In this document: positions 12,521 through 35,088 of the stretch, in pieces
How positions within the stretch are numbered: position 1 is the first letter of the stretch
Layout of the letters: each line of letters starts with the position of its first letter
From: Escherichia phage vB_vPM_PD06
Sequence record: NC_052653.1
Reading direction: 5' to 3' (one strand)
Length of the DNA: 64,000 nt
Made by a program: the position numbers and the translations under genes
The notes under the pieces: generated by a model
The model's input: the letters and a program-made list of their open reading frames with translations, nothing else
The model's database searches: none
Told to the model about the DNA's origin: nothing

Positions 12521-12631
12521 AATGAGAAAAATTCTCATTTGCTAATGATTCTCATTCTCTTAGTGAGAATGCTTATCATTTACATAATTAAATGATAATG
12601 ATTCTCATTTACAAATGAGAATGATTATCAT
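12521..12631. repeat. Cluster of three palindromes sharing a GAGAAT/ATTCTC core
   Basis: AATGAGAA-aaa-TTCTCATT (12521-12539); CATTCTC-ttagt-GAGAATG (12553-12571); ATGATAATGATTCTCAT...ATGAGAATGATTATCAT (12592-12631). Confidence 0.6.
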
Positions 12632-12655
12632 ACGCATACCCATAAAAACACGAAA

Positions 12656-12857
12656 TTGAACTTTTCATTTTTGATTTTTCTACGGAAAAAGGCAAAAAAA
12701 CTTTAAATAAACTGGGGAATTTTTAAAAAATTGAAGTTTTCATTTTCAAAATCTGGATAGAAATACGTACAAAAACTTTAAATAATTTTGACCAAACTTG
12801 AACTTTTCATTTTCAAAATTTGTACCCAAAAATCTGTAAAAACTTTAAATAATTTTG
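12656..12857. repeat. Three tandem ~67-75 bp direct repeats
   Basis: Units start at 12656, 12731, 12798; each TTGAAC/G-TTTTCATTTTCAAAAT...AAAAACTTTAAATAATTTTG. Confidence 0.6.
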
Positions 12858-13071
12858 TACTTTTTATAAAAATGATTTTACTGTTCTGTTATAAGTAGTA
12901 GTTAAGAGATAGTATGTCTTTTAAAGATCAGATACCATAGTCCAACAAACAAATTAAATACTTTATTAACAGGGTGTAGAATACTACTTACTCTGGATAT
13001 ACTGTGCAGAGGGTGAATTTCCGTACATGAAACCCACACCCCTTTTTATAAAAATAAAAATTTTCAAAATA

Positions 13072-13623
13072 TCAGGAAATATCAGATTGTGCTTTTAGAT
13101 AAACAGCAAGGTCTGTATGCCATTTTCCTAAAAGATTTTGTCCTTTCCAACAATCCTTATTTTCCACGTCCCGATCCCACATCCCCATTTTGATACCATA
13201 AATAGAATCATAAGGGCTTGCCTCTACGAACTCCTTATCTGCGTAAGCGATAAGTTTATTTTTGAGATCTTCATTTTGTGTGTATTTAAGATACAAACCA
13301 CGCTTGACAATCTTCTCCCGTAAAGAAGTCCAAGTAGCTTCATCGTAATCTTTAACTAATCTGCCTAGTCGTTTATAATATGCTTGTTCTTTTTCTCCTG
13401 TATATCTTAGATCTCCGGTTAAAATAGAAGATGCAATACTGTAATCATAAAACAAACATGCTTTTCTCCACATCATATATTGTTCCACACAAGTAAATTC
13501 AACAGAACTTGTAATAGAATTATTATACTTGGGAGCTAAAGGTTCAATAAAAGATGATAGATACCAGTTGCTAAATTCATCTTTTGCCGAGAAGAAGAAC
13601 ACATACTTATCAGTAATCCGCAT
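13072..13623 (-). CDS. NADAR (YbiA/DUF1768-like) domain protein
   Basis: FFFSAKDEFSNWYLSSF...EQYMMWRKA and GLYLKYTQNEDLKNKLIAYADKEFVEASPYDSIYGIKMG align with E. coli YbiA as recalled. Confidence 0.7.
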   Translation of the reverse strand: MRITDKYVFFFSAKDEFSNWYLSSFIEPLAPKYNNSITSSVEFTCVEQYMMWRKACLFYDYSIASSILTGDLRYTGEKEQAYYKRLGRLVKDYDEATWTSLREKIVKRGLYLKYTQNEDLKNKLIAYADKEFVEASPYDSIYGIKMGMWDRDVENKDCWKGQNLLGKWHTDLAVYLKAQSDIS

Positions 13624-14817
13624 TTACATCTCCTTATTATATACTAATTTGCCACCATGTTGTGTAATAATTTCTTGAAGATTTTCCAAATCAGAAACAC
13701 TTACTGTTTCTGTATAACCGTCTTTCAACTCTCTTTCCGTTAAAATACCAGTTTTTAATTTTTTCTTTATAGCTCTTTCAGCAGCCTTACATTGTTTCAC
13801 TGTGCTAAAATCATATAAACAAATACGCTCCATAAAAAACATATTACAACTATTTTGACTATTTAATCGCCTATCACTATCTTTAGCTATACCAAACTTA
13901 AGAGCCACTATAATATCATTATCTTTAACAATATTAATATATAATTGCTGTTGATTATGACCAGCACACTGTGGACAACCTTGACCGAGGCTTAATAAGT
14001 TATTAGCCCTCCCTGTCTGTTCCCCATGCACAAGACAAAGATATTTAAACTTACCGTGACTTCTAGACGGTTTACCGATCCAACCTACCCAGACATACCC
14101 TTGCCCTTCTACTTCCTTTTTTACCCTATAGGTGATCTGGTCTTCTGTATACCGATAGTTCCCACAACGACACGGAATGCACCCTCGTTTAAGGTTATTT
14201 CCTTCAGAGTAAAATTTACCATCACAAACACCTGCTTGAACATATTCATCATGAGAGCAAACAGGACATTCAACCATCCAGATACTATGCCTGCATCCTT
14301 TACTCCGTGTTCCTGTGTTAGTGAAGATAGTGCCTTCCTTAAATTTCCCTGTAGAAAAGAAATCTGCAATATGTTGATCGTCGGACATTGTTAGTGCCTT
14401 CCTTGTATTCTCCCCCCTACATTGTGGACAACCTCGACCGCCTTTAAATTGATGAATTGCTGTACTTTGCCATCTATTCCCACAATGGCACAACAAATCA
14501 AGTTTTGTTTTATTCCCTTTCCATTCTCCAACGTACCCTAACACCTGATACCCCTTCTTCTGTGCTATCTCTTCCAAGATCGGCAATTCTGTTTCCCATG
14601 TTAACGGCTTCTTACCAGAACAGATAGGACAACTGTTACCGTGCTTGAAATTACTAATACTACAAGTCTTCCATTCATGTTCCTGCCTACAGCGTAGAAT
14701 CATTTTCGTATCACAACCTATAAACGGTTCAACATATCCTAGGATCTCAATCCCTTTATTATTCGCAATAGGTTGACACTCTTCTTTATATTGTTCCCAT
14801 GATTTTGGTGCTGCCAT
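13624..14817 (-). CDS. Multi-zinc-ribbon protein with C-terminal T5orf172-like domain
   Basis: Five CPxC knuckles (SCPICSG, GCPQCRG, ECPVCSH, GCIPCRCG, GCPQCAGH); C-terminal ALKFGIAKDSDRRL resembles T5orf172/GIY-YIG-like. Confidence 0.5.
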   Translation of the reverse strand: MAAPKSWEQYKEECQPIANNKGIEILGYVEPFIGCDTKMILRCRQEHEWKTCSISNFKHGNSCPICSGKKPLTWETELPILEEIAQKKGYQVLGYVGEWKGNKTKLDLLCHCGNRWQSTAIHQFKGGRGCPQCRGENTRKALTMSDDQHIADFFSTGKFKEGTIFTNTGTRSKGCRHSIWMVECPVCSHDEYVQAGVCDGKFYSEGNNLKRGCIPCRCGNYRYTEDQITYRVKKEVEGQGYVWVGWIGKPSRSHGKFKYLCLVHGEQTGRANNLLSLGQGCPQCAGHNQQQLYINIVKDNDIIVALKFGIAKDSDRRLNSQNSCNMFFMERICLYDFSTVKQCKAAERAIKKKLKTGILTERELKDGYTETVSVSDLENLQEIITQHGGKLVYNKEM

Positions 14818-14891
14818 CTACTACTCCTCTTATTAAATCTGGCATTAATGCAAGAAAACCCGCCGAAGCGGGTTTTTATTTGCTGGCTTAC

Positions 14892-16019
14892 TTAAAACAC
14901 ACTTGCCAAAGTTGCACCATTGGTGATAGTTGGTTCCAGAACAATACGGAAAGAATCTTCTGGATTATCACTAAACACAACGATTTTACCGCCTGTAATA
15001 AGATCTGCTTTCATTTTTGTCGCATTCAATGGAATTCGAGCATCTCCTTCATCATCAAAAACCACGTAAGAGCTATTAGCAAGGGCTTCTTTAGAGTCTG
15101 CATCACTTGGAGATGACAAGTACACGTCTAGTGTGCACGAACCACCTAAAAAGATTGCAGGTGTGAAGTTATGCCAACTAGATACCCAGCTAACTTTCTG
15201 AAGTTTCCCATTAATAACAACGCTGCTGATATCCCATTTGTTACCACCACCCAAAGAAACGCCCATCATAGAGATGCATTCTTTAAAGGACAAATCAGGG
15301 TAGAAATTAAGTTCTTCTACTATACCTTGGATCACATCAAAGGACAACTCTAAACTTACATCCCAAAGCCTTTGGAAATTATCAAAGTGTGCTTTGTTAT
15401 CCAGGTTTTTATCTAAATAGTCAATCATAGTTTCTAGTGAGATTTTATCATAATTAAAATTATAAAACACACGACTAGGACGATTTAAAAAGAATTCAGA
15501 GATAAAACCACTGTTTTTAGTCAGAATAAACAGTTTATTACCACTGCCAGTACCATCTAACAAAGTGAGAAGTGCTTCTTGATCTTGTTTCTTCTCATAT
15601 ACTTTATCAAACTCGTCAAAAATAATCACTGCTTTGTCGGTGATCTTGCTAATAAGTTCAATGAAATTAGCATCACTGTAGGCTTGAGTAACCATAATAG
15701 TTGGAATACCTTCTTCTACAAGGTCACGACTAATGAGCTTGGCTAACATAGTTTTACCACTGCCCTTAGTTCCTGTCAGAAGCAAACCTGTATTTTTACC
15801 TTGTGCACTCCGGCGATGGAATGTACGGATAACGTGATTTGCTCGTTTTTCTGTTTCACCATACAGAACATCCGGTACACCTGTTAGATTACCACGGCTT
15901 AAAAAATAATTGCCAAGGGGATCACGACTAACAGTATAGAATCCAGGTGGAAGATAATTAGATTCCACACCCATATCTTTATTTACACTTACAATATCAC
16001 CATAAATCGTGTATTTCAT
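14892..16019 (-). CDS. AAA-type ATPase, paralog A
   Basis: Walker A GTKGSGKT, Walker B IIFDEFDK, LLTLLDG; paralog of 31305-32465. Confidence 0.7.
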   Translation of the reverse strand: MKYTIYGDIVSVNKDMGVESNYLPPGFYTVSRDPLGNYFLSRGNLTGVPDVLYGETEKRANHVIRTFHRRSAQGKNTGLLLTGTKGSGKTMLAKLISRDLVEEGIPTIMVTQAYSDANFIELISKITDKAVIIFDEFDKVYEKKQDQEALLTLLDGTGSGNKLFILTKNSGFISEFFLNRPSRVFYNFNYDKISLETMIDYLDKNLDNKAHFDNFQRLWDVSLELSFDVIQGIVEELNFYPDLSFKECISMMGVSLGGGNKWDISSVVINGKLQKVSWVSSWHNFTPAIFLGGSCTLDVYLSSPSDADSKEALANSSYVVFDDEGDARIPLNATKMKADLITGGKIVVFSDNPEDSFRIVLEPTITNGATLASVF

Positions 16020-16030
16020 TTTAACCCCTT

Positions 16031-16468
16031 TTATTTTTGTTGAGATGAACGAATTAAATCAGCAGCAAATTCAATCAGATACACTTTTGGTGCAATAATG
16101 ATTTTTAGCCAATCAAAATTCGAAAAGAAAATAACAAATCCTAAAAAGAAAAAGAAAGCACAGACAACAAGACCAACAATAGGTAAAGCAGATACTTCAC
16201 CATAGCGATCTCGTGACCACAGGCATTCTTTATCTTTAATTGCTTTTACGAGGTTCCGCACAGCAATAAAAGTAATAAACATAAAGCAAATACTAAAAAG
16301 TTGCCATAAACCTGCGGATACTGCTTTCCACACTAGTAATTGATGGATTACTTCTGGAATTTGTTGTTTTCCAAACTCTACAACATCACTCATTGTTTGA
16401 ATAGTGACGTTAACCATATTCAGAAGTACATCCGTTGCTTTATCTGCAATTGCGTTTGTTTTACTCAT
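16031..16468 (-). CDS. Hypothetical membrane protein (145 aa)
   Basis: Two or three hydrophobic helices. Confidence 0.6.
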   Translation of the reverse strand: MSKTNAIADKATDVLLNMVNVTIQTMSDVVEFGKQQIPEVIHQLLVWKAVSAGLWQLFSICFMFITFIAVRNLVKAIKDKECLWSRDRYGEVSALPIVGLVVCAFFFFLGFVIFFSNFDWLKIIIAPKVYLIEFAADLIRSSQQK

Positions 16469-16482
16469 TCTTTATTCCTCAC

Positions 16483-16656
16483 TTACCTTTTAAGGAAACC
16501 AATCATAATGAAGAACCACATCCAGGCAGGAGAGATAATAAAGCCAAAGAAACCGCAAATAACCGCTTTCTTAATCTCTTCCAGACAACCCACCAGGAAA
16601 AGAACGAGTGAGACTACAATCCAGATAGCCATAAATACTGTAACAAAGAAACTCAT
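16483..16656 (-). CDS. Small membrane protein (57 aa; not in ORF track)
   Basis: ATG at 16656 after GGGAGAAAGG RBS; MSFFVTVFMAIWIVVSLVLFLVGCLEEIKKAVICGFFGFIISPAWMWFFIMIGFLKR. Confidence 0.45.
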   Translation of the reverse strand: MSFFVTVFMAIWIVVSLVLFLVGCLEEIKKAVICGFFGFIISPAWMWFFIMIGFLKR

Positions 16657-17267: not shown

Positions 17268-17519
17268 TTAAAGTCCTCCTAATTTAATAGTCCACTCAAC
17301 ACCTGTTGGGTAACTTCCACGGCAAATCTTACCATCAGAATGCCAATTGATACTATCAGGAAAGGTGTGGTTGGCTATTTTTTCATGTGGAAGCCAAGCC
17401 GTAGGCTTCTCTCCGCCGTTGATCCACACAAAACCTGCATCTTCGAGAAGTTCAAGTGCAAATTCCATATCTTTTGCGTCGTATACCGTCATCTTTTGAC
17501 CTTTTTGAAACTGAATCAT
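17268..17519 (-). CDS. Hypothetical protein (83 aa)
   Basis: Six-frame ORF. Confidence 0.55.
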   Translation of the reverse strand: MIQFQKGQKMTVYDAKDMEFALELLEDAGFVWINGGEKPTAWLPHEKIANHTFPDSINWHSDGKICRGSYPTGVEWTIKLGGL

Positions 17520-17595: not shown

Positions 17596-17949
17596 TTAGC
17601 TCCACAAATTATGGAAATACTTAGCAAACAAAATACGACCTTCTAAACGCTCTTGCCGTTGTTTTTCATTAACTTCTTCCGGTGGAGTTGAATCTTTAAA
17701 AGAGGACTCCATTTTTTCAAGAATTTCTAACCAGTGTTCTGCTGCTCGTTCTTCCATATAAGGTAGATAGTCACCTTTAGCGTGTGGGTACATCCGACGA
17801 AGTAACCCACTAGGAATTTTAACATTGTTTGTGGCTATCACTTTTGCACGATATGCAGAAAGTGCGTTGTAGATCAGTTTACTTAGTGTCACATCCAGAT
17901 CAAGAAGATCACTGTCTTCAAATTGAATTTCATCGTGTACAATTTTCAT
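17596..17949 (-). CDS. Hypothetical protein (117 aa)
   Basis: Six-frame ORF. Confidence 0.6.
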   Translation of the reverse strand: MKIVHDEIQFEDSDLLDLDVTLSKLIYNALSAYRAKVIATNNVKIPSGLLRRMYPHAKGDYLPYMEERAAEHWLEILEKMESSFKDSTPPEEVNEKQRQERLEGRILFAKYFHNLWS

Positions 17950-17960
17950 ATCACTCTCCT

Positions 17961-18251
17961 TTATAGTAAAACACGTTTTGCACTGCTTGGTGCATTGTCG
18001 AACATGTTTATCACTTTGTCAAGTTTGTGTATTAACTCGTTCGTAATGTTCCACTCTTTGTATGATCTCCATTGTTTCTTATTCTCACCTACCTGGTGTA
18101 AAACTTTGATTGGTGCATTCAAACGTACATTGCGTTCTTTGTCCTCTTCAAAAGAGGCTAACCATTTTTCGTTATGCCCATGAACAGCAATAATAATGCC
18201 AAAACCATCAAAAGTTTCTGTAATATTCTTAGTTGCTAGTGTGATGTTCAT
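17961..18251 (-). CDS. Hypothetical protein (96 aa)
   Basis: Six-frame ORF; first gene of leftward cassette. Confidence 0.6.
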   Translation of the reverse strand: MNITLATKNITETFDGFGIIIAVHGHNEKWLASFEEDKERNVRLNAPIKVLHQVGENKKQWRSYKEWNITNELIHKLDKVINMFDNAPSSAKRVLL

Positions 18252-18310
18252 ATCTAACCTCTTTTGTTACGATACACACAGAGTACCAGAAACTAATTTC
18301 AAATCAAGTA

Positions 18311-18339
18311 TTGACATACATTTTTATTTTGTTAAGATT
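18311..18339 (+). promoter_or_regulatory. Sigma70-type promoter for the rightward block
   Basis: TTGACA (18311-18316), 16-17 bp spacer, TAAGAT. Confidence 0.45.
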
Positions 18340-18369
18340 AGCGCATACCAAATGAAAGGAGAAAAACAA

Positions 18370-18549
18370 ATGCAAAACATCGAACTAACTTCTATCGAAG
18401 CTAAAGAAGCAATGAAGGAAGATAGACGTGTTGAACATAGCCGTTTTTGCGGTGGTGAGTGGTTTGAGATGGAATTCAGATCGGAAGTTTGGCAAGGGAG
18501 TGATGGGGCTGTAATCAAAAAGGAAAGAAGAAATGATCTACAAAAATAA
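18370..18549 (+). CDS. Hypothetical protein (59 aa)
   Basis: ATG after AAAGGAGAAAAACAA; C-terminal part of track ORF 18196-18549. Confidence 0.5.
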   Translation: MQNIELTSIEAKEAMKEDRRVEHSRFCGGEWFEMEFRSEVWQGSDGAVIKKERRNDLQK

Positions 18550-28686: not shown

Positions 28687-28716
28687 AAGCCAGCTTAATG
28701 CTGGCTTTTATTTTCC
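28687..28716 (+). terminator. Intrinsic terminator
   Basis: AAGCCAGC-TTAAT-GCTGGCTT then TTATTTTCC. Confidence 0.55.
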
Positions 28717-28727
28717 ACGGAGGATTA

Positions 28728-29585
28728 ATGACCCAAAAACTATATGAGGATGTAATCGGATTCCTCGAACAAACATCCGAAGAATTTACTCGTGAAAATG
28801 CAAACAAACCTGCAATGATTGTTAATACTCACCGAGACTTACTAGCAGGTATCCTAAGCAAGCACATGGCAATGACCCATATTTTACCGGAAGATCTGGC
28901 AGAATGGCATAAAAGCGGGTATGGTCACATTCACGATTTAGATTATTTACTCTCACCTCTAACTAACTGTTGCCTGGTAAATTACCAAGATATGCTTGAG
29001 AACGGTTTCCGTATTGGTAATGCACATATTGAAAAACCAAAATCTATCGGTGTAGCAACTACTGTCCTAACTCAAATTATTCAAGCAGTGGCTTCTAGCC
29101 AATATGGTGGACAAACTTGTGCACATATTGATACTGGGCTTAGTCAATACGTTAAAGCAAGTTTTAATAAAATCTATGCTGATGTTGGTGATTATGATAT
29201 TGCTATGCGTATGGTAGATAAACAGGTGTACGATGCAATGCAAACTTTAATCTACCAGGTGAACACCCTAATGAGTGTAAATGGTCAGTCACCTTTTATA
29301 ACAATTAGTTTAGGTTTGGATACCTCTGCTTTTGGTAGAATGATCACTAAAAACTACCTAATGGTGCACAAACAAGGTTTAGGGAAAGATAGGGTAACTC
29401 CTGTATTTCCTAAAGTTATCTTCTTCTTGGAAGATGGTGTTAACATGAAAGCTGGCGATCCAAACTATGATTTGAAGCAACTGGCAATGGAGTGTTGTGC
29501 TGAACGCATTTATCCTGATTTTATCTCTGTACCTTTAAACAAAGAAGTTACAGGATCTTCAGATGGTCGCGTCACAAGCATGGGT
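28728..29585 (+). CDS. nrdD: Anaerobic ribonucleoside-triphosphate reductase, exon 1
   Basis: ATG at 28728 after GGAGGA RBS; class III RNR N-terminal half; exon ends ...VTSMG at U29585. Confidence 0.8.
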
Positions 29586-29875
29586 AAACTATAACTGCTC
29601 ATGTAAAATCTGCCTAAACGGGGGAACTCTCAACGAGACAATCCCGTGCTAAACGTAACAGAACTCCCAACACAGAAGAAGGGTTATGATTATGAGTTCT
29701 GTTACGAAATGCCTAACGACTAGCTGTGATGAATGTAGCAGCGTAGGGTGTAAGCCTATGACACCCCAAATGGTAGACATGCTTTAAGCATGAAGATATA
29801 GTCTGATCTGCATGGTGACATGCAGCAGCACGTAATGGTGCGAGAGTGGCCTTGCGAACCACTTTGAACATAATG
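29586..29875 (+). mobile_element. Group I self-splicing intron (290 nt, no ORF) in nrdD
   Basis: P1 exon CAUGGGU pairs with internal guide GCUCAUG (29597-29603) with U-G at splice site; P7 GACUA (29718-29722) / UAGUC (29799-29803); S-like AAGATATAGTC; P9 hairpin CTGCATG-GTGA-CATGCAG (29808-29825); terminal G at 29875. Confidence 0.75.
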
Positions 29876-30817
29876 TGTAGAAGTTTCTTGTCATACTATG
29901 CAACAGAGCAAGGTGAAAAATATGATGGTCGTTTCAACTTAGGCGTAGTTTCTTTAAACTTACCTATCATTGCAGCGGAGTCCCGTGAAAAGGGCATCTT
30001 ATTTACTGAACTGTTGGAACAACATATGGAGATGGCGTATAAGGCACATATGCTACGTGTTAACCGTATTAGACATACCAAAGCATCTCAAAACCCTACA
30101 TTGTTTATGGAAGGGGCTTTAGCTCGACTAGAAGCTAATGAAGAGATTGGTAAACTATTTGAAGGTGGTTATGCCTCTATTAGTATCGGTTATGTAGGTT
30201 TAGCAGAAGCTATGGAGATTTTATACCCAAATAACACCAATCCAAAAGCAATGGGTAAAAACATCCTTCAATATATGAAGGATATCTGTTGCACATTTAA
30301 AGAACGTTCTGGTTTAGCTTTTAGTTTGTATGGAACACCAGCAGAATCCTTGTGCTATAAATTTGCCAAAGCGTTAAATGATCGCTACCCTGGTTCTATT
30401 GATCGTGACTACTTGACAAACTCTTTCCATCAACCTGTATGGATGCACACTACCCCGTTCCAAAAATGGGATTATGAGGAAGGTTTTGCACAAATTAGTA
30501 ATGGTGGGAACATAGGTTATGTAGAAACACCGAACCTTAAAAATAACTTGCAAGCACTGGAAACTCTTGTAGATTATGCCTACAATAAAATTCCTTATTT
30601 TGGCGTGAACCAACCTGTAGATCAGTGTTTCAAATGTGGTTTTCATGGTGAATTTAAAGCAACGGCTAAAGGCTTCGAGTGTCCAAGTTGCGGTAATCAT
30701 GAAGAAGAATCCATATCTGTGATCAGAAGAGTGTCAGGATACCTTTCTGCCCCTAACTCTCGCCCTTATAACAAAGGTAAAATGCAAGAGGTACTAGAAA
30801 GGGAGAAACATTTTTGA
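29876..30817 (+). CDS. nrdD: Anaerobic ribonucleoside-triphosphate reductase, exon 2
   Basis: Frame resumes at CRSFLS...DGRFNLGVVSLNLP; C-terminal CxxC zinc site (CFKCGF...CPSCG). Confidence 0.8.
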   Translation, partial: CRSFLSYYATEQGEKYDGRFNLGVVSLNLPIIAAESREKGILFTELLEQHMEMAYKAHMLRVNRIRHTKASQNPTLFMEGALARLEANEEIGKLFEGGYASISIGYVGLAEAMEILYPNNTNPKAMGKNILQYMKDICCTFKERSGLAFSLYGTPAESLCYKFAKALNDRYPGSIDRDYLTNSFHQPVWMHTTPFQKWDYEEGFAQISNGGNIGYVETPNLKNNLQALETLVDYAYNKIPYFGVNQPVDQCFKCGFHGEFKATAKGFECPSCGNHEEESISVIRRVSGYLSAPNSRPYNKGKMQEVLEREKHF

Positions 30818-31284
30818 ATTACGCCGGATATGAACCTGTTGACATGCTCAACGGTGACGGTGTAAGATGCTCTTTGTGGGTGAGCGGTTGTAGCCACGGT
30901 TGCCGTGGCTGCTTTAACCAGAAAGCCTGGTCGTATAATTACGGACAAGAGTTCACTGCTGAAACATTAGATCTTATCTTGGAAGATTTATCTCGACCTT
31001 TCATTAAAGGATTAACAGTTTTAGGTGGTGAACCTCTTGACAAAGAGAACATTGACACTGTAGAGTATGTTCTTGAGAAGGTAAGAGATTGTTTTGGAAA
31101 CAAAAAAGATATTGTCTTATATACAGGATATCTTTTTGAAGAAATTCCAGAGAAAATTAAAAAACTGGTTGACATAGTGATAGATGGTAAGTATGATATG
31201 AATCAACCAACAACGAAACGTTATAGAGGTTCAGATAATCAACGAATGTGGGTTAAGAAAGACAACATTTGGGAATCTGACTAA
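30814..31284 (+). CDS. nrdG: Anaerobic RNR activating protein (radical SAM)
   Basis: NYAGYEPVDMLNGDGVRCSLWVSGCSHGCRGCFNQKAW; TTG start overlapping nrdD stop. Confidence 0.8.
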   Translation: MNYAGYEPVDMLNGDGVRCSLWVSGCSHGCRGCFNQKAWSYNYGQEFTAETLDLILEDLSRPFIKGLTVLGGEPLDKENIDTVEYVLEKVRDCFGNKKDIVLYTGYLFEEIPEKIKKLVDIVIDGKYDMNQPTTKRYRGSDNQRMWVKKDNIWESD

Positions 31285-31304: not shown

Positions 31305-32465
31305 ATGTTTACAGTATTCGGCAATCAAATCTTCCTGCGTCAGAAGTCTGGTACAGATATTGAAGAAATTCCAGCAGGAACTTTTGGTGTAGGTGTTACT
31401 CAAAGTGGCGAGTTCTTCTTGTATCCTAAAAACGATATGGAAGTCCCTTCAGTAACATACGGTGATACTGATGATAAATCAGAACGTATTATCAAGACGT
31501 TCCTTAGCCGCAAAGGTAAAAACACAGGTGTTCTCCTTGAGGGTACGAAAGGTAGTGGTAAAACTTTGCAAGCTAAAATGTTGTCTTCTGCTCTTCGTGA
31601 AATGGGTATTCCTACTATTTCTATCGGTAGTGCTTTTAATGGTGAAGGCTTTATCAACTTTATGTCTAAAATCACACAACCTGTGATGATTATGATCGAT
31701 GAATTTGATAAACTGTATGCTGAAAAAGATGCACAAGATGGTTTGCTTACCCTGCTGGATGGTGTTGGTGGTTATGACAAGCTGTTTGTATTGACTAAAA
31801 ATGATGGTTATGTATCAGAATTTTTGCGTAATCGTCCTAGCCGTATTTTCTACAGTTTTAGCTATAAGAAACTACCTAAAGCTACTATGGATGATTATCT
31901 GGCTAAAAATCTGGAGAACAAAGCCTTCTTGCCAGATTTTGAAACGCTTTATAATCTTTCTGTGGACTTGAACTTTGATATTGTTCAGTCATTAGTAGAA
32001 GAACTTAACCGTTATCCTAATGACAAATTCTCTGATGCACTTGCATTAATGGGTATCAGTATTACTGAACACGGCTATGCTGCAAAAGAAGTTAAACTTC
32101 TGAAAGTTAACGGTGTAGATCGTACAGCAGATGTTTCGTCAGATACCGATATTGACGGTATGACAGCACAAGGTTTGTTTAGCGGTAATCGTTATGTTGT
32201 AGCTGTAGATCATAAGTCAGGAGAAGAGCATCTTCCTGAAATGGAAGGGATTGTTACCGTAGAAGATAAAGATGAAGAAGGTGACTACTACTGGGGTGTA
32301 GACCGTATCTTGCTAACGTATGATGAAAAACACATTCGTACAATGGGTGGTGACGGTTATCACTTTATGTTCACCGATGATAAAGGTAACAACATTGAAG
32401 TTGTTATTAAAAACAAAGAACGTAAAAACTACACAGAGTATGTGTTTGGTGGTCGTTCTTACTAA
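31305..32465 (+). CDS. AAA-type ATPase, paralog B
   Basis: Walker A GTKGSGKT, Walker B IMIDEFDK, LLTLLDG; paralog of 14892-16019. Confidence 0.7.
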   Translation: MFTVFGNQIFLRQKSGTDIEEIPAGTFGVGVTQSGEFFLYPKNDMEVPSVTYGDTDDKSERIIKTFLSRKGKNTGVLLEGTKGSGKTLQAKMLSSALREMGIPTISIGSAFNGEGFINFMSKITQPVMIMIDEFDKLYAEKDAQDGLLTLLDGVGGYDKLFVLTKNDGYVSEFLRNRPSRIFYSFSYKKLPKATMDDYLAKNLENKAFLPDFETLYNLSVDLNFDIVQSLVEELNRYPNDKFSDALALMGISITEHGYAAKEVKLLKVNGVDRTADVSSDTDIDGMTAQGLFSGNRYVVAVDHKSGEEHLPEMEGIVTVEDKDEEGDYYWGVDRILLTYDEKHIRTMGGDGYHFMFTDDKGNNIEVVIKNKERKNYTEYVFGGRSY

Positions 32466-32872: not shown

Positions 32873-33529
32873 ATGACTGTTAAGCATATTTCTTTTGATG
32901 TATGGAATACTCTTATTACTGCTAATCCTTTGTATGCAGAAGAACGCAACAAGGTTATTGCCGAGTATACCTCTTGTTCTGAGGCAGAAGCAGCTACCGT
33001 ATATAAAGAGGTAAAAACTCTCCTGGATTTAAAAGCAGAAAAAGGCGTTTGTGGAACGTCTAGGAATGCTTGGGAAACACTTTCTACTCGTTTGAACATT
33101 GATCTTGATAAGGTGGATGGATTAAAAAGAGACTGTTTAGCAATGTTTATAAAACATCCTCCAATATTGAACCCTGAGCTTTGCAAGAAGTTGGAAGAGC
33201 TAAGTTCAACCTATTCTTTGAGTATTAAGAGCAATACTAATTTTGTACCAGGTAGTTTCTTAGCTGTATATTCTGGCTTAACAAAATTACCATTTGACTT
33301 TATGCATTTTTCTGATGAGTTTTGCTTGTGTAAACCAGATCCTAGGTTTTTTAAACTCTCTTTTGATGAAATGGTAACGTTTGATCTCGCACCAGAGGAG
33401 ATTTTACACGTTGGAGATAGTTTGATCTATGATGGAAAAGCTGTTGACATAGGGATGAAGTTCTGTCATATTATTAATCCAGAAGATTTGTTGGCTAAAC
33501 TTAAAAAAGAGGAACTTATTAATGCGTAA
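32873..33529 (+). CDS. HAD-superfamily hydrolase (haloacid-dehalogenase-like)
   Basis: Motif I FDVWNTL (DxYxT-type variant); motif IV VGDSLIYDG. Confidence 0.55.
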   Translation: MTVKHISFDVWNTLITANPLYAEERNKVIAEYTSCSEAEAATVYKEVKTLLDLKAEKGVCGTSRNAWETLSTRLNIDLDKVDGLKRDCLAMFIKHPPILNPELCKKLEELSSTYSLSIKSNTNFVPGSFLAVYSGLTKLPFDFMHFSDEFCLCKPDPRFFKLSFDEMVTFDLAPEEILHVGDSLIYDGKAVDIGMKFCHIINPEDLLAKLKKEELINA

Positions 33530-34379
33530 TCAAATTCAACATTTTGCTAATACTTTTACTAACCTGAAGGAAGCAAAATTTAACATTGCAGATTATTCCA
33601 AACTAAAGTTTGGTAGTAACCAGGCAGCAAAAAGAATGGGACGCATTCTGGCTGAAAGTTTCTTTTCTAAATATGAAGAACGACTAGTAAATGAAAGTTT
33701 TGTTGTTATTCCATCTCCATACAACTATGTGAAAAATGCAGCTACAGTGTTATCTGAACATTTTGTAGATCACCTCAACTACCTAATCTCTATCAAAGGA
33801 GGTAAAGCAGTAGAGTGGGATATCGTTCATCGTAAAGTGAGTTATATCAATGATTATGGATTTCTTAGCAAAGAAGATCGTAAGGCTTTGATCGATGGTG
33901 ACACTTTCTCTATCAATCGTGATTTCTGGGGTAATAAAACTCTGATTTTCATTGATGATGTTAATATTACAGGAACACACGAAGAAAAACTTATTGAAAT
34001 TTTAGACAAAGAAGGTGTTGAAAACGATACGTTTTTCCTGTACTTTGCAAAGTATGAAGGTACAGAAGCCAACACCGAAGCTGCGCTTAACTTCAACTAT
34101 ATCAATAACTTGGCAGCTTTTATTAAAATGATTAAGCAAGAAACTGATGCTAAATGTTTGGTTCGTCCTATTAAGTATCTAATGAGTCAAAGCGAAGTTG
34201 ATTTTAAAATTGCACTTTCACAACTTCCTTTGTATTATGTAGAACAACTGTTCTTTGGTTGCCTTGCAGAAGGTTACAATAATATTGAAAAATACAAAGA
34301 GAACTTTGATTTCCTGCGTCAATTTTTTGAAAGCAACATTATCAACAAATCTAATGTTAAAGGGGATTATTATGTCTAA
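33522..34379 (+). CDS. Phosphoribosyltransferase-like protein
   Basis: PRTase signature TLIFIDDVNITGTHEE. Confidence 0.55.
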   Translation: MRNQIQHFANTFTNLKEAKFNIADYSKLKFGSNQAAKRMGRILAESFFSKYEERLVNESFVVIPSPYNYVKNAATVLSEHFVDHLNYLISIKGGKAVEWDIVHRKVSYINDYGFLSKEDRKALIDGDTFSINRDFWGNKTLIFIDDVNITGTHEEKLIEILDKEGVENDTFFLYFAKYEGTEANTEAALNFNYINNLAAFIKMIKQETDAKCLVRPIKYLMSQSEVDFKIALSQLPLYYVEQLFFGCLAEGYNNIEKYKENFDFLRQFFESNIINKSNVKGDYYV

Positions 34380-35088
34380 TAAAGTGACGACTTTCGGAGA
34401 TCCTATCACCAATATTACAGAAAAAGATTTTGGGCGTGTAGCAACAGATAAAGATGGTGTCTTAAGAATTCGTGTACAAGGCATTACAGCACAGGATGAA
34501 TATGCTGTGTATGTTTCAGGTCTTAATTATATTGATGATCGCATTACACAAAACTTTGCACTGATCGGTGGTGTAGAGAAAATGTACTGGGAAGATGAAA
34601 TTGTAACAAGTTATCCAGCAGGTATCATTGAGGTACACGGTGATCTTTTAGCAGCAGCCGAGAGAGGCGATATAGACGCTATAGCACACTGCTGTAACTG
34701 TTTTTGCACTATGGGTAGTGGTATTGCACCAAAAATTAAAAGCAAGTGGCCTGGTGCGTTTAAAGCAGATTGTGCCACTAAGCGTGGTGATTATAAAAAA
34801 TTAGGTACGTTTACTAAGTATACAGAAAACAATTTGACAATTTATAATTTATATGGACAATATGGTTATAGTCGTCGTGAGGAAGGTAAGCGTGACCTGA
34901 ATTATGAAGCTATCTACAATGCGTTAGATAGTATGGGAGACGATGTTGTATCTTCAGGCGGTAAAATTGTAGGTTTACCAATGCTTGGTTGTGGTTTGGC
35001 TGGAGGTTCTTGGAATATTGTAAAACTTATGATCGAAGAAACTCTAGTGAACAAAGGTTTAAATGTAATTGTTTACAAACTGAAATAA
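34372..35088 (+). CDS. Macro-domain (ADP-ribose binding/processing) protein
   Basis: GDIDAIAHCCNCFCTMGSGIA aligns with macro consensus DAIVNAANxxLxxGGGV. Confidence 0.55.
   Translation: MSNKVTTFGDPITNITEKDFGRVATDKDGVLRIRVQGITAQDEYAVYVSGLNYIDDRITQNFALIGGVEKMYWEDEIVTSYPAGIIEVHGDLLAAAERGDIDAIAHCCNCFCTMGSGIAPKIKSKWPGAFKADCATKRGDYKKLGTFTKYTENNLTIYNLYGQYGYSRREEGKRDLNYEAIYNALDSMGDDVVSSGGKIVGLPMLGCGLAGGSWNIVKLMIEETLVNKGLNVIVYKLK

Follow-up and report, generated by a model that had tools for sequence, protein, structure and literature searches.

Three BASEL phages, Bas60, Bas61 and Bas62, encode a NADAR protein named AdfN-Bas60, which upon ectopic expression neutralises DarT1 in E. coli and lets RB69, T5 and Bas25 form plaques again on DarTG1 hosts, but is without effect against DarTG2, and requires no further phage factor (Johannesman et al., Nat Commun 2025, PMC11825919). 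In that study, AdfN-Bas60 escaped the blastp and PSI-BLAST searches for which AdfN-T4 was the seed (PMC11825919), although a Pfam match exists, while in T4 itself AdfN counters DarTG1 and the macrodomain protein AdfM counters DarTG2 (2025 preprint). Here we examined a 64,000-nucleotide stretch of Escherichia phage vB_vPM_PD06 (NC_052653.1; the window), in which a first-pass annotation had described a leftward five-gene accessory cassette at 13072-16656 with a NADAR gene as candidate anti-DarTG countermeasure. This NADAR gene (13072..13623, minus strand) is very probably the ortholog of adfN-Bas60 and a countermeasure against DarT1 which acts alone, with neighbouring genes that are unrelated to it and are not its partners.

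The region is matched by 88 phage records, with Escherichia phages arall and Eryne at the top (98.5% nucleotide identity), after which come many genomes of Justusliebigvirus (Stephanstirmvirinae), among them Bas60 PaulScherrer, Bas61 EmilieFrey and Bas62 JohannJBalmer; at least 80% of the 4.2-kb query is covered in 53 records. The source is a Justusliebigvirus-type E. coli myovirus, and the window represents an isolate separate from Bas60, Bas61 and Bas62, with arall, Eryne and Antha as its nearest relatives. The motifs by which the NADAR family had been recognised are borne out by profile search, as the 183-aa protein matches PF08719 over residues 13-168 (E=3e-36; 125.5 bits, cutoff 35.1). 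It is 99% identical to the NADAR proteins of Bas60, Bas61 and Bas62, from which it differs by one or two substitutions in 183 aa (S/N62, A/D/T96 and A/T178), all at positions which also vary among those three phages, and the corresponding NADAR genes bas60_0111, bas61_0107 and bas62_0106 are syntenic with the window gene. Using tblastn, 717 NADAR places were found in 716 phage records, spanning phages of Staphylococcus, Listeria, Enterococcus, Bacillus and others, so that there is effectively one NADAR locus per genome, and AdfN-Bas60 should therefore be the counterpart of the window gene.

Catalytic residues were mapped by alignment to the structure of P. nicotianae NADAR (PnNADAR, 8BAU), with residue roles taken from Schuller et al. 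2023, and are present: E47 (PnNADAR E43), K54 (K50) and E134 (E125, the third acidic residue). The ADP-ribose contacts K84, R88, Y93, W98, R102 and D139 are likewise kept, with E95 replacing PnNADAR D86 and Y142 replacing W133. The gene is under strong purifying selection, since its dN/dS against Bas60, Bas61 and Bas62 is only 0.03-0.08. It is also an orphan, flanked by a CapR/T5orf172 gene upstream and a non-coding repeat hub downstream, and there was no ADP-ribosyltransferase (ART) domain among the ten leftward-block proteins scanned, hence no DarT/ART gene adjoining it. A DarTG toxin-antitoxin system, which requires a paired DarT toxin gene, was rejected for that reason, and PADLOC returned the candidate-system model PDC-M42C alone for the NADAR protein. 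In a DarTG1 host, freed DarT1 would ADP-ribosylate guanines in the single-stranded phage DNA, and the NADAR protein, as an antitoxin-like ADP-ribosylglycohydrolase, would strip off the ADP-ribose and so allow replication to proceed. The lack of effect on DarTG2 in vivo, taken with in-vitro data on other NADARs, points to hydrolysis of guanine-linked rather than thymine-linked ADP-ribose on DNA, and the conserved catalytic residues together with the in-vitro work suggest that the protein would act as a guanine-ADP-ribose hydrolase in native infection as well.

The window protein further scores above the curated cutoff of TIGR02464, the model for YbiA-type riboflavin-intermediate N-glycosidases (109.4 bits, cutoff 73.7), and like E. 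coli YbiA it combines a NADAR domain with a glutamate (E134) at the position defining the YbiA subfamily. Passing this cutoff accounts for the annotations 'YbiA-like N-glycosidase' and 'GTP cyclohydrolase II' in relatives, and each of these observations would suit a housekeeping enzyme that chiefly clears reactive intermediates of the riboflavin pathway, with any activity against DarT1 being incidental. We consider such a role exceedingly unlikely, because full neutralisation of DarT1 and the rescue of three phages have been shown for AdfN-Bas60, whereas E. coli YbiA hydrolyses guanine-linked ADP-ribose in vitro yet gives cells no protection from DarT1. In addition, AdfN-Bas60 groups with non-YbiA-like bacterial NADARs in the published phylogeny (PMC11825919), and no riboflavin genes were seen adjoining the NADAR gene in the leftward block. 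Public labels for the gene are inconsistent, being 'DNA methyltransferase' in Eryne, 'GTP cyclohydrolase II' in ESCO5, KMB37 and AV123, 'swarming motility protein' in UPEC06, and 'YbiA-like N-glycosidase' or 'hypothetical' elsewhere; these can now be corrected within the genus.

The proposal of an anti-DarTG countermeasure thus holds for DarT1, which the 99%-identical AdfN-Bas60 neutralises, but not for DarTG2, on which that protein has no effect. The idea was right, but earlier work has published it for a protein that is essentially the same, and for DarTG1 only. Its value is as validation of the scan, in that a reading of raw sequence alone rediscovered a real phage counter-defence gene; the biology itself was already known, the protein having been named and tested in 2025.

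The NADAR gene is one of five contiguous leftward open reading frames (ORFs), all of which were found on the minus strand as the first-pass annotation had them, with intergenic gaps of 0-74 nt; besides the 74-nt gap and one of 76 nt, no gap in the leftward block exceeds 20 nt. In all likelihood this stretch is a run of densely packed leftward accessory genes that holds at least three unrelated things. Its features are as follows (TM, transmembrane):

13072..13623, minus strand: probable adfN ortholog, a NADAR-domain DNA ADP-ribosylglycohydrolase of the AdfN-Bas60 type, 183 aa, predicted to strip guanine ADP-ribose from phage DNA (PF08719, identity to Bas60/61/62, catalytic residues, dN/dS)
13624..14817, minus strand: predicted homing-endonuclease-like protein of the T5orf172 type (GIY-YIG superfamily), 397 aa, with four CapR zinc-finger repeats at its N-terminus (PF21817, PF10544)
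13627..13965, minus strand: T5orf172 nuclease domain of that protein, aa 285-397 (492 representative homologs; invariant residues kept)
13966..14817, minus strand: its CapR-repeat (DNA-binding) region, a local divergence hotspot (repeat counts, nucleotide identity, dN/dS)
14855..14875, minus strand: predicted intrinsic terminator hairpin between the ATPase stop and the endonuclease start (folding energy, conservation)
14892..16019, minus strand: classical-clade AAA+ ATPase, 375 aa (PF00004)
16031..16468, minus strand: predicted two-TM membrane protein, 145 aa (phrog_3054, E=1e-44; hydrophobic segments)
16483..16656, minus strand: predicted two-TM membrane protein, 57 aa (phrog_22950, E=7e-40; hydrophobic segments)

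As had been noted, the endonuclease stop and the NADAR start abut, in the form TAAATG and with no spacer between them. The ATPase and endonuclease genes are separated by a gap of 74 nt, which contains, on the minus strand, the hairpin AAACCCGC-UUCG-GCGGGUUUU, with a folding energy of -17.8 kcal/mol (z=-3.7; 0/200 shuffles as stable). This hairpin is unique in the window, Bas60, Bas61, Bas62 and Eryne carry an exact copy at this site, and the record of phage Paula annotates it as a terminator, while our own terminator scan missed it, probably since A-U pairs lengthen the stem into the U tract. It is predicted to be a strong, conserved intrinsic terminator, dividing the ATPase unit from the endonuclease-NADAR pair. 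A search of the 11-19 kb region against Rfam gave no match.

The distribution of the five genes bears on whether they form a single anti-DarTG cassette, for instance one in which the zinc-finger nuclease or the ATPase recruits or assists the NADAR protein on damaged DNA. The genes are contiguous on one strand with gaps of 0-74 nt, and all five are found together in 53/53 close relatives, with the NADAR protein at 95% identity or more and the 397-aa protein at 60% identity or more in 53 records each. The sister-genus phage ESCO5 (Phapecoctavirus) also keeps the order of ATPase (64%), endonuclease (48%) and NADAR (59%). However, ESCO5 has two additional genes between endonuclease and NADAR and lacks homologs of both membrane proteins, at whose positions there are a 118-aa protein with a signal peptide and an unrelated 54-aa protein with two TM segments, the latter in the place of the 57-aa protein. 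In Seunavirus GAP31 and KE22, a ligase/exonuclease block surrounds the NADAR homolog (39-41%), whose neighbours are wholly different and include none of the other four genes. The co-conservation on which the cassette idea relied is therefore complete among the 53 close relatives, but breaks down outside the genus. Further points against a joint cassette are the activity of AdfN-Bas60 without other phage factors (PMC11825919), the conserved terminator between ATPase and endonuclease, an ATPase paralog elsewhere in the window, and the sharply unlike evolutionary rates of the genes. Across the genus, identity to the window is 98-100% for NADAR, ATPase and the two membrane proteins, but only 77-81% for the endonuclease of Bas60, Bas61 and Bas62. 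We judge a five-gene functional cassette to be very unlikely, and the neighbouring genes should not be taken as anti-DarT partners: the endonuclease would have no part in ADP-ribose removal, and the ATPase and the two membrane proteins would be dispensable for AdfN activity.

Some observations do weigh against a solitary anti-DarT1 gene, and these include the TIGR02464 score, the co-occurrence of all five genes in the 53 close relatives, which amounts to linkage at genus level, and the gene order kept in ESCO5. To these can be added that the evidence for AdfN-Bas60 comes from ectopic expression, with no deletion of a native Justusliebigvirus adfN reported (PMC11825919), and that we infer the identity of AdfN-Bas60 with bas60_0111 from this being the sole NADAR locus. 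Finally, endonuclease and adfN lie behind the strong terminator, and no convincing promoter was seen between it and the endonuclease start; a σ70 promoter scan of the 12.3-18.6 kb region gave 22 sites against 21.7 expected.

The 397-aa protein directly upstream of the NADAR gene contains four CapR homology domains (PF21817, E=1e-38, 131.7 bits), and the T5orf172-like C-terminus that had been suggested for it is supported by a match to PF10544 which is weak but above threshold (22.1 bits, cutoff 20). It further matches phrog_681 'endonuclease' (E=4e-84) and weakly DUF4379, its homologs carry PF05265 and PF21817, and there was no specific family for it or for the membrane proteins in PADLOC and NCBIfam. 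Sequence matches in the PDB were to antibody heavy chains only and are spurious. The five CPxC zinc knuckles of the first-pass annotation are in fact four CPxC motifs and one CIPC, which with CxC or CxxH partners build one zinc site in each of the four CapR domains. Queried with the C-terminal 113 aa, an exhaustive HMMER search (a word-indexed search returned one protein) gave 492 representative homologs of 117-555 aa, in which the T5orf172 domain is always C-terminal and the number of CxxC motifs grows with protein length. All family-invariant nuclease residues are kept in the window protein (Y293, K307, G309, R317, E347, D366, G367, T369, E370 and T371). Relatives found by tblastn include the 'putative homing endonucleases' of ICP1 (32% identity, E=1e-26) and many genes labelled 'endonuclease' in phages of Vibrio, Aeromonas, Klebsiella and Escherichia, frequently in several copies per genome. 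On these domain and homology data the gene is predicted to be a homing-endonuclease-type element, made up of a T5orf172 nuclease and four CapR modules, of a class found at many loci in many phages.

Among close relatives the alleles encode 325, 390, 397 or 467 aa and differ by whole N-terminal CapR repeats, with three repeats in Bas61, four in the window and in Bas62, and five in Bas60; in the five alleles examined the ORF is intact and free of frameshifts. Nucleotide identity to relatives drops to 64-87% solely within about 14000-14800, the CapR part, and is 95-100% at both gene borders and 92-100% in the nuclease-coding part. The CapR part has a dN/dS of 0.34-0.59, with dS two to four times that of the flanks, versus a dN/dS of 0.15-0.32 for the nuclease part. 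Such homing endonuclease genes (HEGs) have been described as having a nuclease of the GIY-YIG subfamily at one terminus and tandem CapR, DUF723 or DUF4397 zinc fingers as 'beads on a string', with repeat duplications and deletions arising by recombination (Barth, Dunham & Seed 2023, PMC10448857). By the same route, the CapR repeats of the window gene would be evolving fast through repeat gain, loss and recombination, in what would be either a selfish or a domesticated element.

No HEG-less allele or empty site was seen among the close relatives or in the sister genus, so that the patchiness which is a hallmark of such genes is lacking; because the gene is present in every relative without an empty site, it may be fixed or domesticated. 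In the latter case it would no longer be homing, and would serve the phage as a nuclease or DNA-binding regulator, either by attacking satellites or rival phages, as Odn does, or through repression of genes as by the CapR of PLE. Its intact ORF in five of five alleles with dN/dS below 1, its occurrence at this one locus in all close relatives as well as the sister genus, and the arms-race-like pattern of a conserved nuclease domain next to hypervariable DNA-binding repeats would all fit this, and Odn-like domesticated T5orf172 genes are known from the same phage genus (Inny, Muut), with a cognate satellite found (PMC10448857). Yet a search of E. coli genomes gave no chromosome or satellite with DNA homologous to the CapR-repeat region, and saturation by an active HEG also leads to fixation, an outcome which sequence alone cannot tell apart from domestication (Barth et al., PMC10448857); we therefore see domestication as possible, though somewhat doubtful.

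The endonuclease and adfN could also be viewed as a selfish element with its cargo, the endonuclease cutting the genome of a relative without the pair during co-infection and the repair then co-converting adfN. The TAAATG abutment, and the terminator which sets the pair apart from the upstream genes, are features of such a unit, and if it were real the anti-DarTG1 gene would spread horizontally by hitch-hiking on a homing endonuclease, but we think this improbable. In Seunavirus GAP31 (L006 5001-5946) and KE22 (L007 5001-5947) an HNH endonuclease gene immediately follows the NADAR homolog. NADAR genes thus lie beside homing-endonuclease-type genes of two nuclease families in two phage subfamilies, which could be coincidence or reflect HEG-assisted mobility.

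In its terminal nuclease, tandem repeats and in-frame gain and loss of these repeats, the window gene resembles the T5orf172 HEGs gp165 and gp174 of ICP1, with their CapR/DUF723 repeats, as well as the CapR of PLE. Unlike such HEGs, it is not patchy but fixed, at a single locus, throughout the close relatives, and it adjoins an anti-defence gene, whereas these HEGs are most often found beside essential genes.

Profile search also agrees with the first-pass annotation on an AAA ATPase and two small membrane proteins as the remaining genes. The 375-aa ATPase matches PF00004 (E=1.5e-9) and consists of an N-terminal beta domain, the AAA core, a lid, and a beta-rich C-terminal domain, with the Walker A, Walker B, sensor-1 and second region of homology (SRH) arginines of classical-clade AAA+ proteins on the AAA fold. 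It shares this clade with Bcs1, bacterial Trip13, NSF-D2 and the AAA module of FtsH, and has N- and C-terminal beta domains of its own, which have no match. The label of FtsH-like protease or Zn metalloprotease given to it in relatives was rejected, as it has no M41 peptidase domain, HExxH motif or TM anchor, and is another record label that can be corrected in the genus. Most likely the protein is an ATP-driven remodeller of other proteins, with the variable C-terminal domain picking the target. A paralog is present at 31305-32465 (plus strand) in a different context, with 47% identity over aa 1-256 (E=1e-81) and an unrelated C-terminal domain of about 120 aa; this pair suggests a phage AAA+ family which swaps target-recognition domains. 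Weak PDB matches of ATPase residues 201-291 (E about 1e-3 to 5e-3) to the effector domain of influenza A NS1 had no fold-search support and are probably due to chance. Each membrane protein contains two hydrophobic segments of TM length, at about aa 49-77 and 89-126 in the 145-aa protein and at aa 1-29 and 31-55 in the 57-aa protein, and within the genus they are 98-100% and 100% identical, respectively.

Downstream of the NADAR gene, the repeat-rich hub that had been placed at 12.5-12.9 kb as a border of the cassette is real, but the genes to its left are also on the minus strand, so that it interrupts a series of leftward genes and does not mark a strand switch. It contains four copies of a 17-bp palindrome, ATGA(G/T)AA-N3-TT(C/A)TCAT, within 110 bp (12522-12631), where chance would give 0.08, and a tandem array of three direct repeats (12653-12873), each of about 67-79 nt, with the common sequence AAATTGAACTTTTCATTTT...AAAAACTTTAAATAA and 66-72% identity to the reference copy. 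The palindromes resemble an operator array at which a dimeric protein would bind DNA; they also bear a loose resemblance to the Fur box (best 15/19 by eye).

At approximately 17601-18471, a segment of about 870 bp has one orientation in the window and Bas61 and the opposite one in Bas62 and Eryne. It holds orf117 (17596-17949), a DUF7325 gene (17961-18251) and a divergent intergenic region, and its inversion shifts the two genes from one transcription unit to the other, leftward or rightward; the segment is flanked by a weak 17-nt inverted repeat (17492-17508 and 18515-18531, 82% complementary). On the plus strand, the anaerobic ribonucleotide reductase NrdD is found in two ORFs about 250 nt apart (28698-29594 and 29846-30817, covering Pfam model positions 1-263 and 263-562), which by analogy with T4 nrdD could reflect an intron or a split gene, and NrdG follows at 30814-31284.

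The window had also been said to carry two ADP-ribose-processing domains, and this is correct, as the gene at 34372-35088 (plus strand) encodes a macro domain (PF01661, 31 bits, cutoff 22). Its best match is DarG, by the macro domain only (NCBIfam antitoxin_DarG, E=2e-13; PADLOC, E=5e-14), and in the PDB it matches SCO6735, BT1257 and TARG1, and weakly the DarG of T. aquaticus, with E=2e-15 for 5E3B; we assign it on these matches to the predicted TARG1/DarG class. The gene overlaps the end of a ComF-like phosphoribosyltransferase gene (33522-34379, plus strand; PF15610, E=1e-41).

Of the described systems, AdfN-Bas60 is thus closest to the window NADAR, from the same genus and genomic position, of the same length (183 aa), with 99% amino acid identity and with all catalytic residues in common. 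With AdfN-T4 (gp30.3) and with DarG1, the NADAR antitoxin of DarTG1, it has in common the NADAR fold and, by prediction, the guanine ADP-ribosylation by DarT1 as target, and the catalytic Glu/Lys pair is seven residues apart both in T4 (E36/K43) and in the window protein (E47/K54). The window NADAR is of a different clade. Its E134, the glutamate of the YbiA type, stands at a position occupied by His in T4-like phage NADARs and by Asp in DarG1, and AdfN-Bas60 neutralises DarT1 without phage infection, whereas AdfN-T4 does not. The presence of both a NADAR and a macro domain protein in the window parallels the combination of AdfN and AdfM in T4, and by this analogy the macro protein may act against DarTG2 in the way of AdfM, in which case the phage, like T4, would have both arms.

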